A DNA stretch of 41,901 nucleotides from an uncultured Eubacteriales bacterium (lineage in GTDB: Bacteria; Bacillota; Clostridia; Oscillospirales; Oscillospiraceae): NCBI GenBank assembly GCA_900550705.1, contig URTG01000001.1, positions 1-41,901 of the forward strand, read 5' to 3'. Below are positions 2,913-41,901 of this stretch, in pieces; position 1 is the stretch's first letter, and each line of letters starts with the position of its first letter. The position numbers and the translations under genes are program-made. The notes under the pieces are model-generated. The model was not told the DNA's origin. It saw nothing but the letters and a program-made list of their open reading frames with translations, and searched no databases.

Positions 2913-4700
2913 ATGGAAAATAACCAGCTGCTGCCCTTTGAGCGCAATCGCTATTACGTTGGAAAACTGCTGACCTCGGCCGACTTTCAGGCGGAGCAGG
3001 TCTATCACAATCACAAGCGCCGCTTCCTCAACGAGATGCTGTTTGGCAGCGGAATCGTCTGCGGGCTGGATGTGTACAGCCTGGACGACCTGTCCATCAT
3101 GGTGGACTCGGGCGTGGCGATAGACGGCTGCGGCCGGGAGATTGCCCTGGAGACCCCTGTGGTGCGGAAGCTGTCCGCCGTAGAGGGGTTCGAGGGGCTG
3201 GAGACCGAACGGGCCACCCTGTGCCTGCGGTATGAGGAGGAGGCCGTCCACCCGGTGTACACCGTCCGGGGCCAGGAGAGCGGCGAGAGCTATGAGTGCA
3301 ACCATGTCCGGGAGGGCTGGCAGCTCTTTCTGCGGGACAGCAGCGCCGTGCCCCCTGCGGAGCCGCCGGAGCCGGAGTTTCTGTCGGTGGCCCAGCTCTA
3401 CGCCGACCAGGACTACATCGTCACCTGCGCCATGCCCGCCCAGACGCCCTGCGGGGCCGCCGTGCGGTTGGAGGTGCGGGTGCGCCGGGTGGGGGAGAGC
3501 GCCCCGCCCCTCACCCTGAAGACCGCCTTGCAGATGCCCGCCTTTGTGGGGGAGGACGGCGGCCATGAGCTGATGCTGGAGCTGCTGGACCTGGCCCCGG
3601 AGGGCGAGGTGGTCCTGAGCCGGACCCTCATCGCCCAGGCGGCTCCCGCCCCGGAGTCCGTCCTGCTGGCCGATGCCTCCGCCATCCAGGTCCGGGTGGG
3701 AGAGGAGCAGCGGACGGCGGAGGAGAACTTCGCCCTTCGTGTGGCGGTGGTGGAGGCCACGGCGGAGCAGATCGTGGACCACGCGGCGGCCTCCGCCAGC
3801 CTGGAAATGCGGAACGCCGCCGGGGGACAGGACTATGTCCCCCTGGCGGAGATCGTTTTGCAGCGCACCCGGAACGCCTACTTAATGGAGAGCATCCGCA
3901 CCAACGGCGTGCGGCAGTATATCCGCACCGCCGCCTCTGACGCGCTGCGGCAGGAGCTGGCGGGCTGGTTCCGCCTCCCCCGCGCGGCCCAGGCGGCCGC
4001 CCCGGCGGCGGTCCGGACGGAGCCGGCGGCGGAGCGCCGCCCGGAGCCTATCTACGCCACCGGCGTGTGTGAGATCCCCCTGGGGGCCAACCTCCGCCGG
4101 GGCCAGGTGGCCTACTCCGACGAGATCGTCCACGGCCTGGGGCCGGGCACGGTGTTCGTCACCGTGGGGGCGGAATATCTGGCCGACGACCCCAAGCTGG
4201 GAACGGCCGCCCGGAGCACCGTCTACGGCAGCGTGGCCCTGTTCACCCAGGAGCAGGCCCCCACCGTGGCCGCTGAGACGGCGGTGAAGGTGATGAACGA
4301 CCGGGGCAGCTTTGTGGTGGCGGCCCGTCTGCTGGAGGACAGCACCCAGGTGGTCCTCCCGCTGCGGTGGGTGGCCGTGCTGCTGCCCAGCAGCGAGAAG
4401 GAGAGCAAGCTCCAGAAGCTGGCGGGCAAGAGCATTGCCGCCATCCAGCCCACCGTGGTGCTGGCCACCCGGGAGAGCCACTTCTTTAATGTGCGCTTCA
4501 ACAATATGGAGCCCTGTACGCTGACCTACGAGCTGTCGGAAAAGGACTCGGGTGAGATCACCTCCGACGGCATCTACACCGCCCCCGGCCGGGAGGGCGT
4601 GTTTGAAATCCGCATCTCCTGCGCGGAGCAGCCGCTCATCTCCACCTACGCCTACGCCGTGGTGAAGAAGCGGGACGCCCAGGAGGAGGGCCAGATCTAA
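2913..4700 (+). CDS. Putative CIS tail-fibre / baseplate-attached protein with C-terminal Ig-like domain
   Basis: N-terminal FERNRYYVGKLLTSADFQAEQVY...GIVCGLDV...GVAIDGCGREI is typical of CIS fibre/baseplate-attachment modules; C-terminal GEITSDGIYTAP is Ig-like. Confidence 0.6.
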   Translation: MENNQLLPFERNRYYVGKLLTSADFQAEQVYHNHKRRFLNEMLFGSGIVCGLDVYSLDDLSIMVDSGVAIDGCGREIALETPVVRKLSAVEGFEGLETERATLCLRYEEEAVHPVYTVRGQESGESYECNHVREGWQLFLRDSSAVPPAEPPEPEFLSVAQLYADQDYIVTCAMPAQTPCGAAVRLEVRVRRVGESAPPLTLKTALQMPAFVGEDGGHELMLELLDLAPEGEVVLSRTLIAQAAPAPESVLLADASAIQVRVGEEQRTAEENFALRVAVVEATAEQIVDHAAASASLEMRNAAGGQDYVPLAEIVLQRTRNAYLMESIRTNGVRQYIRTAASDALRQELAGWFRLPRAAQAAAPAAVRTEPAAERRPEPIYATGVCEIPLGANLRRGQVAYSDEIVHGLGPGTVFVTVGAEYLADDPKLGTAARSTVYGSVALFTQEQAPTVAAETAVKVMNDRGSFVVAARLLEDSTQVVLPLRWVAVLLPSSEKESKLQKLAGKSIAAIQPTVVLATRESHFFNVRFNNMEPCTLTYELSEKDSGEITSDGIYTAPGREGVFEIRISCAEQPLISTYAYAVVKKRDAQEEGQI

Positions 4701-4735
4701 ATTTTTAGAAATACCGCGCCGGAGGGGGGCAGAAC

Positions 4736-40274: not shown

Positions 40275-40277
40275 CGT

Positions 40278-41901
40278 ATGCCGGAAACGAAAACGCCGGA
40301 GGAGGTCCAGCGCCGTCACCAGGAGCTGTCTGTGAACGAGGAACAGACGAAGCTGGTGGAGCAGCTGGCGCAGCACGAAGCATTTTCCGGAATGCAAGAG
40401 GAGACCGAAAAAACCGCACAGCCGCTGCGGGCCATCCAACCGCTGGCGCAGACCGGGGGACTGACCTCCGGCGGCGCGGCGGAGGAGCACAAGCGCAAGG
40501 AGAGCAGCTCGGAGCGCAAGCAGAGAGAATCGCTGGAAAAGCAGCGGCGCAAGGCCTCTGCGGCGAGGAGAAAGGCCGACGCGCTGGAGCGCAGCAGGAG
40601 CCAGGAGGGTCCGGTGCAGCAGAAGCGGGAGCAGGAGATCCTGTCCTCCCGACTGAACGCCATCGCCGAGGAGGAGACGGCCGACCGGATGGAGGCGGAA
40701 CGGAGCGGAACCGCCGAGGCCGTGGAAATCCAGAAAAAAGAGGCCAGCCTGAAGGCGCAGGAGGCGCGGGTGGCGGCCTATCACTCCGCTGCGACCCAGA
40801 TGGCTCCCGGCTCCAAGGAACGGGCGCGGCTGATGGCAAAAAAGGAGGCCGAGGTCCTGAAGTGGGACAAGCTGAAACGGGAGCTGAAGGTGGCCAGAAT
40901 GCCGGAGGGTGCAGAAAAAGAGCGGGAGGCGGACACCATCGCGCGCCACGCCAACTTTGACAGACTGAAAAAGCTGTTCCGCAAGCCCACCCGGTATTCC
41001 CATGAGGACGCAGTCCTCCACGCCGCCGGCGGCAAGGTCCTGATTAATCGGGGGCGCGCCACCATGGGCGGCACCAAGGCCATGTACCTGTTTGAGGAGC
41101 AGCCCACGCAGCAGGAGGGACAGGAGCAGACCGCGCCCCAGACCTGGCTGTTCAAGGAGGCCACCGACTGCATTGACAGAGCAAAGCCCTCCGGCGCCGT
41201 GGTTACGGCGGCGGCCTCCAAGCTCCAGCAGCGCCTGCGCGGCGCGCTGTCTATCCCCGCCGAGTGCGTGATGGACGGCGGCCGGGTGGTGGGCTCCATC
41301 CAGCGGCAGGTGCAGAAGGTGCAGTCCGGGGTGGACCTGTTCCGGTGGCAGGCGCAGGAGAATCTGACCCAGCTGCCGGAGACCACCATGCGCGACCTGA
41401 TGAATGAGCATACGCTGGACTGGGTCCTGTGCAATTTCGACACCAAGGGCGAGAATTTTATCAACCAGGCCAACGACCACATCATTTCCTTCGATAAGGA
41501 GGCGTCGTTCAACACGCTGCTGAAAAAGGAAGCCCAGCATATGTCGTATACCTTCAAGCCGCACTCCAACGATACCATTTACAATACCATGTTCAAGGCC
41601 TACGCCGAGGGCAAGCTCGACCTGGACCTGAATGCGAATCTGGAATCGGTCCAGAAGCTGGAGCAGATGAGCCAGGACGAGCTGATTGGGATGTTTCAGA
41701 GCACGCTGGATATCAAATACGGCAAGGCGTCCTCCGACCGGAAGAAGGCCGAGCAGCTGCTGAGAGACCGGCTCGCCGGACTGCGGGAGGAATACTGCAC
41801 CTTCTATACCCAGCTGATTCAGGAGCGAAGGAAGAACATGAGCCGCGATGAGGCGGAATGCGCCCGGCTGGACGGGATGCTGAAGGACGGCAGATTCGTA
41901 T
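40278..41901 (+). CDS. Putative CIS cargo effector with HipA/PI3-PI4-kinase-like domain (partial, runs off the window end; absent from ORF track)
   Basis: Manual translation is open for 541 codons from ATG 40278 (SD GGAGGG): MPETKTPEEVQRRHQ...MGGTKAMY...WLFKE...EHTLDWVLCNFDTKGENF...IISFDKE. Confidence 0.8.
   Translation, partial: MPETKTPEEVQRRHQELSVNEEQTKLVEQLAQHEAFSGMQEETEKTAQPLRAIQPLAQTGGLTSGGAAEEHKRKESSSERKQRESLEKQRRKASAARRKADALERSRSQEGPVQQKREQEILSSRLNAIAEEETADRMEAERSGTAEAVEIQKKEASLKAQEARVAAYHSAATQMAPGSKERARLMAKKEAEVLKWDKLKRELKVARMPEGAEKEREADTIARHANFDRLKKLFRKPTRYSHEDAVLHAAGGKVLINRGRATMGGTKAMYLFEEQPTQQEGQEQTAPQTWLFKEATDCIDRAKPSGAVVTAAASKLQQRLRGALSIPAECVMDGGRVVGSIQRQVQKVQSGVDLFRWQAQENLTQLPETTMRDLMNEHTLDWVLCNFDTKGENFINQANDHIISFDKEASFNTLLKKEAQHMSYTFKPHSNDTIYNTMFKAYAEGKLDLDLNANLESVQKLEQMSQDELIGMFQSTLDIKYGKASSDRKKAEQLLRDRLAGLREEYCTFYTQLIQERRKNMSRDEAECARLDGMLKDGRFV

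Follow-up and report, generated by a model that had tools for sequence, protein, structure and literature searches.

A conserved block of envelope protein genes in a contractile injection system locus of gut Clostridia

The stretch of DNA analysed here, referred to as the window, is the entire contig C1 (URTG01000001.1, 41.9 kb) of an uncultured Eubacteriales bacterium; flanks beyond it are unreadable in the host genome. Judged by its gene content, the window encodes a lineage-II (Afp/PVC-like) contractile injection system (CIS) of gut Clostridia, in which five genes for envelope proteins (M1 to M5, 4736-13737, + strand) are located between the gene of a CIS13-family fibre-like protein and the cap gene. 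The CIS itself is of a known kind. New is the conserved envelope block, which combines a predicted TolC fold in the absence of an outer membrane with two apparently dead signalling enzymes. This block may form a trans-envelope docking and trigger complex for a CIS that remains attached to the cell, a reading that we favour tentatively, at somewhat less than even odds. To our knowledge, the deployment of CIS in thick-walled hosts without an outer membrane has been studied only in Streptomyces, where it is intracellular and linked to cell death, and in haloarchaea, where it is membrane-anchored.

Association of the block with the injection system locus

Gene calls were based on Pfam, NCBIfam and PHROGs scans of the window proteins. 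A sequence-only reading made earlier of this DNA had proposed a full PVC/Afp-type structural set, and every core part of that set could be matched, namely sheath, tube, initiator, spike and tip, gp25, Baseplate_J, fibre, cap and AAA ATPase, with the tape measure assigned by position only. Between 2913 and 34944 the + strand carries 23 co-directional genes at a spacing of -4 to 217 nt. Within this series M1-M5 follow the CIS13 gene and precede the cap gene with gaps of -4 to 35 nt, and a terminator scan revealed no convincing + strand terminator within the block.

The host genome bin comprises 1.73 Mb on 217 contigs and is rated 94.67% complete; the G+C content of the window is 0.66. The contig was assigned to this host by binning and by comparison with an isolate genome (L024) that carries nearly the same locus, its sheath being 94% identical. 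A Clostridia-type monoderm host, as suggested in the sequence-only reading, is indicated by two Spo0A_C matches in the host genome, by the absence of any Omp85/BamA match from this 94.67%-complete genome in a search that was positive in seven diderm control genomes, and by the closest loci, which are found in Oscillibacter and other Oscillospiraceae.

A scan started from M5, with one genome per GTDB species, yielded 139 loci, 80 of which were kept. All 80 belong to Clostridia by title or gene similarity, mostly to Oscillospiraceae, Lachnospiraceae, Family XIII, Gracilibacteraceae and Hungatella. The sheath gene was present in 63 of the 67 loci with at least 4.5 kb of downstream sequence; two of the four sheath-less loci have a sheath elsewhere in the genome, one is rearranged and one is without a sheath by this query. 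On the upstream side, CIS13, M1, M3 and M4 were found in all 66 loci with at least 8.5 kb of sequence, and M2 in 63 of them. The genes keep a constant order, RR?-CIS13-M1-M2-M3-M4-M5-cap-x-PAAR-sheath, and the arrangement between fibre and cap is the same in Oscillospiraceae, Lachnospiraceae, Family XIII and Gracilibacteraceae. Searching from the sheath in metagenome contigs, M5 was recovered in 29 of the 32 loci that had 5 kb or more of upstream sequence. Among 400 genomes of the family, M4 was encoded by all four with a sheath at least 68% identical, by none of the 18 with other sheath types and by none of the 378 in which no sheath was matched. The module proteins diverge in step with the sheath (Spearman rho 0.83-0.94), a correlation that is descriptive only, the loci being kin.

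Because of the synteny seen from M5, and because M4 is confined to the 4 of 400 genomes with this sheath subtype, the block is, on genomic evidence, not a passenger of the CIS locus. Independence of M1-M5 from CIS loci, which would have spoken against the earlier proposal, is not what these scans gave: synteny from M5 and from the sheath agrees, and M4 is absent from all sheath-negative genomes of the family. The idea that the five genes form one module held in part. They co-occur with this CIS subtype, but they are not an invariant unit, since M2 is missing in 3 of the 66 loci and relatives of M1-M3 occur elsewhere.

Such relatives were seen in two genomes of the same genus (G021 and G013), which carry another CIS subtype with a sheath approximately 54% identical (L011, G021:C13 11931-19201; L013, G013:C108). 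In this subtype the CIS13 gene precedes genes whose products resemble M1 (hhalign 91.7%, E 7.8e-7) and M2 (99.6%, E 4e-24); genes for a MORN protein and the cap come after these, and M4 and M5 are missing. In genome G006 no block is present and the CIS13 gene follows the P2_I gene. A low-GC subclade with a sheath 60-66% identical is represented by metagenome loci L120, L126, L133, L137, L142, L156, L168 and L181 (0.40-0.50 G+C in the five measured). Here an M5 homologue adjoins the cap (98.7%, E 1.5e-16), and one or two giant N-anchored proteins of 980-2200 residues stand in place of M1-M4; three of the giant proteins were scanned against Pfam and gave no match.

Some further observations were made on the surveyed loci. 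Two genomes titled Bacteroides thetaiotaomicron (L050) and Bacteroidales bacterium H4 (L092) bear the Clostridial locus, with per-gene identity profiles that mirror those of Hungatella (L060) and Clostridium sp. CAG:632 (L097); both are probably mis-binned or mislabelled. Sheath matches with a single in-frame stop (TGA or TAA) were found in G010:C42, G009:C1, G356:C8, G314:C2, G154:C53 and G046:C15, and could represent decaying loci or assembly errors. In a further CIS type the sheath query matched in two adjacent pieces, with the N-terminal half approximately 44% and the C-terminal half approximately 63% identical; this type was seen in G081, G214, G286, G355, G407 and G445, and also in G009 and G013:C133.

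Predicted folds of the block proteins and the fibre

A Kyte-Doolittle hydrophobicity scan placed terminal transmembrane or signal segments in M1-M5 only, among all window proteins. The expected segment recurs in the homologues of each (M1 69/69, M2 64/64, M3 73/73, M4 62/74, M5 72/78), in line with the five tightly packed genes for membrane or exported proteins that had been noticed at 4736-13737 from the sequence. Internal hydrophobic matches are unreliable because the scan also gives false positives, as seen from a buried sheath segment flagged in 61 of 65 homologues.

M1 (4736-5608, + strand, 290 aa) consists of a cytoplasmic kinase-fold domain, one C-terminal transmembrane helix and a conserved tail of 30 residues. 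Its AlphaFold2 (AF2) model (pLDDT 87) shows a protein-kinase fold followed by a single C-terminal helix. The top Foldseek matches, at E ~4e-7, were Staphylococcus aureus PknB/Stk1 (E 3.6e-7), Mycobacterium tuberculosis PknB and the Rv3910 pseudokinase. In the VIA structure comparison, Z values of 12-14.7 were obtained over approximately 200 residues, the highest for PknS (Z 14.7, root-mean-square deviation 2.9 Å over 195 residues). In the consensus of 33 family members, inspected by eye, no Gly-rich loop, VAIK lysine, HRD or DFG motif could be found, while N22, R87, L191, K195, D210 and G280 are invariant. M1 is therefore predicted to be a membrane-anchored pseudokinase, as the family consensus is without catalytic motifs despite the kinase fold. 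EssB, a type VII secretion system (T7SS) protein that also combines a pseudokinase with a transmembrane segment, was absent among the 50 Foldseek or VIA matches listed for M1.

M2 (5605-7602, + strand, 665 aa) has a signal or transmembrane segment, an outer domain, a transmembrane bundle, a HAMP domain (Pfam, E 1.8e-5), a cytoplasmic domain resembling the cyclase homology domain and a helical tail. Median identity is 18% in the outer domain versus 41% in the cytoplasmic part. The cytoplasmic domain gave no Pfam match at E up to 5; its language-model features in the Atlas (0.92, 199/256) are common to Guanylate_cyc (PF00211) clusters. At the position aligned by eye with the first metal-binding aspartate, a serine is apparently present. 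M3 (7631-8857, + strand, 408 aa) carries a basic N-terminal tail, a transmembrane helix at residues 68-86, extracytoplasmic MORN repeats (Pfam, E 1.3e-11) and a C-terminal domain.

M4 (8892-10943, + strand, 683 aa) is composed of a signal peptide, a TolC-type helical part and two C-terminal beta-sandwich domains. Two stretches of the protein match Pfam OEP (PF02321; E 8.5e-15, 55.5 bits versus a cut-off of 22). The AF2 model (pLDDT 79.9) was aligned by Foldseek with TolC, OprM and CusC at a probability of 1.00, E 2e-7 to 1e-5 and target TM-scores of 0.5-0.6. In this model the barrel region is reduced to two short aromatic/basic hairpins: the barrel positions are occupied by short strands (320-329) and by a loop modelled with low confidence (86-98), and no 12-stranded membrane beta-barrel is formed. 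The hairpins are the most conserved part, with a median identity of 72-77% versus 52% for the whole TolC-like part. The family is small: a search of 1.84 billion representatives returned 182 of them (E up to 1e-30). M4 is thus modelled with the fold of the TolC/outer membrane factor family, in a host without an outer membrane.

M5 (10960-13737, + strand, 925 aa) is predicted to be an anchored wall protein, in which a transmembrane segment (residues 10-28) and a helical domain are followed by a coiled coil, a linker rich in Gly, Ser and Thr, and a C-terminal domain. All of its 267 homologues are unnamed or annotated as 'hypothetical'. No relative was found among PDB sequences or in Pfam, and the Atlas gave no informative neighbour; a match of the C-terminal domain to Cu_amine_oxidN1 at E 0.15 (Pfam) is a lead only. 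When the profiles of M4, M1 and M5 were compared with PDB sequences, only chance coiled-coil matches were returned, and these were rejected. Nothing else useful was obtained from Pfam at E up to 5 with cut-out domains, namely the outer and cytoplasmic parts of M2, the C-termini of M3, M4 and CIS13, and the N- and C-domains of M5.

The CIS13-family fibre-like protein (2913..4700, + strand) was recognised by NCBIfam CIS13_fam over residues 9-161 (E 2.3e-26), with a score for this N-terminal domain of 92.9 bits, below the curated cut-off of 370. The window protein has no hydrophobic or transmembrane segment, and only 7 of 65 homologues have any. Its tip (residues 501-595) is the best conserved part, with a median identity of 65% versus 32% for the middle, and is on that account read as binding a constant partner and not changing targets. 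CIS13 also remains with the block in split loci. Complex prediction for CIS13 with M1 residues 1-236 gave scores of 0.38, 0.38 and 0.36, with at least 93% contact agreement between runs and a partner pLDDT of at least 79; the best control scored 0.01. In calibration of the tool, 58 of 80 solved complexes attained the mark, as did 2 of 110 mismatched pairs; at scores of 0.60 or lower it was attained by only 7 of the 80 solved complexes and by both passing mismatches. A CIS13-M1 contact is weakly suggested by these models.

Mode of deployment and alternative readings

A CIS that is always accompanied by a set of membrane and wall proteins suggests a function while attached to the cell envelope. 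Under the favoured docking and trigger reading, the particle would be assembled in the cytoplasm, with fibres joined to the baseplate by their N-terminal domains. The conserved fibre tips would dock at the cytoplasmic face of the membrane, on the pseudokinase M1, the HAMP/cyclase-like M2 and the tail of M3, and the peptidoglycan would be entered or crossed by the large outer parts of M2, M3, M4 (as a trimer with TolC fold) and M5. Production or firing could be gated by the variable outer domain of M2, the histidine kinase/regulator pair and the STAS protein of the locus, and in Hungatella also by partner-switching proteins. The machine would then act from a position fixed to its own envelope, in the manner of a type VI secretion system (T6SS), and not as a free particle freed by a lysis cassette. 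From gene content, topologies, folds, strict co-occurrence and the absence of nearby lysis genes we infer that the proteins may form one complex, that this complex may dock the baseplate, and in which direction firing would take place.

The absence of a holin, endolysin or amidase from the window, noted in the sequence-only reading, was borne out insofar as no lysin or holin family was matched among the window proteins scanned, some small open reading frames (ORFs) being outside the scan. Since the window is a whole contig, the flanks of relatives were examined. Four lysis families (Amidase_2, Amidase_3, GH25 and Phage_holin_4_1) were searched in four relatives with long contigs or chromosomes, and approximately 20 flanking ORFs were scanned with Pfam. 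In the isolate relative G041 the CIS is located on contig C11 (265 kb), and in G044 on contig C38; the Amidase_3, Amidase_2 and GH25 matches of both genomes are all on other contigs. In the chromosome G042 the sheath lies at 1.72 Mb and the nearest such match approximately 137 kb away, and in Hungatella (G043) the sheath lies at C1:874 kb and the nearest match approximately 120 kb away. Phage_holin_4_1 was absent from the five genomes searched (G041-G044 and G000). In G000 itself, such matches are on other short contigs. The scanned flanks of the relatives contained no lysis gene. Lysis genes just outside the window, which would have counted against the earlier proposal, were thus found neither on the same contig nor within approximately 120 kb of the locus in the four relatives.

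Other genes were identified in these flanks. Downstream of the locus in G041, Pfam revealed eCIS_core (DUF4157) proteins, a PPPDE peptidase-like protein, a second AAA ATPase and a GNAT protein, and upstream are housekeeping genes. The second ATPase gene of G041 is divergently oriented and its product 32% identical (L188 17843-19884, L189 1-8004); the window ends earlier. In Hungatella, the downstream genes encode an RsbW-like kinase, a small eCIS_core protein, a Cache-HAMP-SpoIIE phosphatase, transporters and choline-binding-repeat proteins. A full partner-switching set is tied to the CIS there, after the STAS gene (L191, G043, 9176-12539), and the window retains the STAS gene only.

Several points weigh against the docking and trigger reading. 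The Afp15-type ATPase is typical of released extracellular CIS (eCIS), as are the eCIS_core (DUF4157) proteins near the locus in G041 and G043, and the Ig-like tip of the fibre would also be in keeping with a free particle that binds its target. Release by autolysis or mother-cell lysis is compatible with the absence of nearby lysins, and the host has Spo0A. Particles of this kind can do without M1-M4, given that M5 alone is retained in the low-GC subclade. No homology was found to TssJ, TssL or TssM, or to the probable haloarchaeal anchor, a candidate picked by topology. A TolC-type tunnel is too narrow for a CIS tube, and M4 is therefore unlikely to be the tube channel; it may instead be a strut or a membrane-binding crown. 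Given the signalling folds of M1 and M2, the block could be mainly regulatory. The CIS13-M1 score is weak, and by the calibration of the tool a pass at so low a value is wrong more often than it is right, except where the pair was a likely one from the start.

Some of these points would be accommodated by a classical extracellular CIS, released by autolysis, by lysis of the mother cell during sporulation or by a lysin encoded elsewhere, in which M1-M5 would sense a cue, control production or release, or open the wall locally. We regard this as rather unlikely. The Afp/PVC-type set with its Afp15-like ATPase, cap and fibre, the eCIS_core proteins of relatives, Spo0A in the host and the presence of lysins elsewhere in every genome searched all agree with it. 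So do the pseudokinase, HAMP and cyclase-like signalling folds of M1 and M2, the variable, sensor-like outer domain of M2, and the kinase/regulator pair with the STAS protein, to which Hungatella adds the RsbW-like kinase and the Cache-HAMP-SpoIIE phosphatase. However, more than 2000 residues of conserved extracytoplasmic protein (M3, M4 and M5, including the TolC fold) go beyond the needs of a sensor, and M1 and M2 are without visible catalytic residues and thus look like scaffolds and not enzymes. The fibre tip is moreover conserved, not variable, and the nearest solved relatives are not free eCIS.

A second alternative is an intracellular CIS as in Streptomyces, where the block would recruit the particle to the membrane and firing under stress would lead to regulated death of the producer, perhaps tied to sporulation; this we consider improbable. 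The sheath and Baseplate_J proteins of the window are close to 8bky, 9gtp and 8bl4, presumably Streptomyces CIS entries, many stress-signalling parts are encoded in the locus, and the host comes from a spore-forming lineage. The role assigned to the block would be that of CisA, which is bitopic, encoded in the cluster and needed for contraction according to the available part of bioRxiv 10.1101/2024.06.25.600559. On the other hand, the Ntox11 polymorphic-toxin gene with its adjacent small gene and the eCIS_core cargo of relatives indicate action on other cells, large outward-facing parts would be needless for self-killing, and the domain make-up of the block is unlike that of CisA, as far as CisA is described in that part of the source. 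Very improbable is an unrelated surface or transport operon, adhesin or efflux-like, that merely lies inside the CIS locus. M4 does belong to the TolC/OEP superfamily known from efflux, and MORN and Ig-like domains are found in adhesins, but the block contains no pump or ABC partner and its order between fibre and cap is fixed across four families. The restriction of M4 to this sheath subtype (0/378 sheath-negative and 0/18 other-subtype family genomes) and the small size of its family also argue against such an operon.

Taking the docking and trigger reading further, the locus could represent the first cell-envelope-anchored, T6SS-like injection machine of single-membrane bacteria, spread by gene transfer among gut Clostridia and sharing ancestry with the archaeal T6SS-like system. 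Its dedicated trans-wall complex would be built from dead signalling enzymes (pseudokinase and pseudo-cyclase), MORN repeats, a giant wall strut and a repurposed TolC-fold protein. We consider this joint reading, taken as a whole, conceivable and on balance doubtful. If anchoring is true, this would be the first T6SS-like system of monoderm bacteria, it would give a function to TolC-fold proteins in such bacteria, and it would constitute a new weapon of antagonism or host interaction in abundant gut commensals. With this locus, the candidate envelope parts of a CIS lineage from human, chicken, rumen and termite gut Clostridia are available as a conserved and well-delimited set. Cultured strains are among the carriers by record title (Oscillibacter valericigenes An890, Hungatella hathewayi WAL-18680, Lachnospiraceae bacterium KH1T2), which makes the question of deployment experimentally testable.

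Other genes of the locus and comparison with known systems

Downstream of the block, the + strand encodes the Afp16/Pvc16-like cap (13763..14356; Pfam Pvc16_N, E 1.5e-30), a conserved CIS protein of unassigned role (14357..15112) that matches no Pfam, NCBIfam or PHROGs family and is present in 58 of the 80 loci, and a PAAR-like tip protein (15114..15500; Pfam DUF4280, E 6.5e-25). These are followed by a single sheath gene (15564..17267; Pfam Phage_sheath_1 and Phage_sheath_1C), the tube gene (17358..17861; Pfam Phage_T4_gp19, E 2e-31) and a gene for a tail assembly chaperone-like protein (17922..18284; phrog_508, E 4.1e-7). Two large genes in tape-measure position (18502..23919; 798 and 997 residues) gave no Pfam, NCBIfam or PHROGs family. 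Two CIS_tube paralogues with 33% mutual identity (23955..25554; Pfam, E 1.7e-16 and 1.1e-12) could serve as tube initiator or adaptor. A gpD-like hub, a Phage_base_V spike and a gp25 wedge (25585..28096) and two Baseplate_J-like proteins of 1013 and 700 residues with a Tail_P2_I protein (28093..34549) were all recognised by Pfam. The structural series ends with a STAS-domain protein of the anti-sigma antagonist type (34621..34944; Pfam STAS_2, E 9.6e-15), whose gene is kept after the P2_I gene in G041, G042 and G043.

Two features of this series were seen at its middle. The product of the first gene in tape-measure position (18502-20898) keeps its N-terminal ~150 residues among relatives and varies in length from 148 to 1027 residues (L024 17622-20705, L060 17859-18398, L098 16499-16945); it could be cargo or a tape-measure-related effector and not the ruler. 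A stem-loop of nine pairs (18312-18332, + strand) lies just past the chaperone gene, where the structural operon has its only gap of 217 nt, and may be an attenuator placed behind the sheath and tube genes, which are highly expressed. No Rfam family was present in the window.

The dedicated two-component system proposed from the sequence was identified as a membrane histidine kinase (34993..35949, - strand; Pfam HisKA and HATPase_c) and an OmpR-type response regulator (36157..36846, + strand; Pfam Response_reg and Trans_reg_C), the end of the latter overlapping the start of the Afp15-like AAA ATPase gene (36843..39131, + strand; Pfam AAA, PF00004, E 2.1e-28). The toxin-like cargo proposed likewise corresponds to a protein with a long low-complexity N-terminus and an Ntox11 toxin domain (997..2742, - strand; Pfam, residues 299-515, E 2.6e-28), which is a candidate cargo. 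Directly downstream of its gene is a GNAT acetyltransferase-like gene (97..984, - strand; Pfam Acetyltransf_1, E 2.9e-8) that may have an immunity or accessory role. At the other end, a second GNAT gene (Pfam Acetyltransf_1) and a gene truncated by the contig end (39414..41900, + strand) are possibly a second cargo pair; the truncated gene (40278-41900) has no family in Pfam or PHROGs scans. GNAT-like genes thus stand beside toxin-like or large unassigned genes at both edges of the locus (97-984 and 39414-40274; in G041, L189 8045-8887), and these may be an immunity or cargo-handling family.

Several long ORFs in the mechanical list are wrong-frame artefacts in G+C-rich DNA. Rejected on this ground were the ORF at 34850-36115 (- strand), which lies over the histidine kinase gene, and the + strand ORFs at 253-2817, which lie over the toxin and GNAT genes.

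Among solved structures, the window sheath was closest to 9EZM (E 5.7e-114), followed by 8bky/9gtp and 8bl4/9gts (~1e-97 to 1e-95) and, at ~1e-45, by PVC, AFP and the thylakoid-anchored CIS (tCIS) of Anabaena. The best PDB relative of the first Baseplate_J protein was 9gtp_1K (E 2.5e-23). We take 8bky, 9gtp, 8bl4 and 9gts to be Streptomyces CIS entries. In the full-text literature, as far as it was available, no description of a membrane module in a Clostridial CIS was found, and such loci may be listed in supplements (fig. S6 of PMC11566945, dbeCIS tables). The accessible portions of PMC12210884, PMC6899500, PMC8213781, PMC12923769, PMC11566945 and bioRxiv 10.1101/2025.07.29.667580 contain no such module; one preprint describes, in the portion concerned, an eCIS 'subtype IIb' in Acutalibacteraceae symbionts without the block genes.

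With the released eCIS Afp and PVC the locus shares the core set, the Afp15-type ATPase, the Afp16-type cap and toxin genes at the edges, as far as these systems are covered by the available parts of PMC6899500 and PMC8213781. These systems depend on lysis for release, and the same parts of both accounts include no conserved envelope module; the window sheath is in addition a single gene, distant from Afp2-4 and Pvc2-4. In the Anabaena tCIS, the Cis13 trimer binds the baseplate by its N-domain and enters the thylakoid membrane with its own C-terminal helix (PMC8894136, available in part). The CIS13-family N-domain is common to the window fibre, whereas CIS13 of the window has no transmembrane helix of its own and is followed by separate membrane proteins, and the sheath is distant (~1e-46).

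M4 resembles the outer membrane factors of the TolC family by its Pfam OEP match and by a model that aligns with TolC, OprM and CusC. It differs from them in having a host without BamA, shortened barrel strands, two extra beta-sandwich domains and no pump partner.

The CIS of Streptomyces also operates in a Gram-positive host, and its cluster encodes CisA, a bitopic membrane protein needed for contraction (bioRxiv 10.1101/2024.06.25.600559, available in part). From the description given there, to which the comparison is limited, CisA and M1 have the same orientation, but CisA combines an unstructured N-terminus and a single transmembrane segment with a C-domain that resembles substrate-binding proteins, whereas M1 is predicted to be folded as a pseudokinase and to have hardly any outer part. 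The window also adds four further envelope proteins and cargo with a polymorphic-toxin domain.

The closest solved sheath, 9EZM, is that of the T6SS-like CIS of Halogeometricum borinquense, which according to the available part of PMC11566945 stands perpendicular on the cytoplasmic membrane. In that part of the source the T6SS-like mode in haloarchaea accompanies a conserved membrane-protein gene beside the cluster, and the nearest relatives of haloarchaeal Cis11 come from Bacillota. The two systems share a pair of Baseplate_J genes and the presence of DUF4157 cargo genes, the latter seen here in the flanks of relatives. The haloarchaeal system differs in its archaeal S-layer host and, as described in PMC11566945, in one putative six-transmembrane anchor versus five proteins here. 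When HBOR_RS17580, a six-transmembrane protein of 388 residues encoded upstream on pHBOR03 and chosen by topology, was compared with the M2 profile, hhalign gave 0.4%, and a 286-residue tail-anchored protein of the haloarchaeal cluster gave 0.1% against the M1 profile.

The canonical T6SS is built on the TssJLM trans-envelope complex and is controlled by threonine phosphorylation. Among the window proteins, Pfam gave no match to T6SS membrane-complex families, and the sole ATPase is a plain AAA (PF00004) protein and not a recycling ATPase of the ClpV type. M1 has a kinase fold, not a TssL fold; like TssL, however, it presents a tail-anchored cytoplasmic domain. The likeness to the canonical T6SS is one of concept, in that a trans-envelope complex and kinase-type signalling proteins would couple a contractile tail to the envelope.

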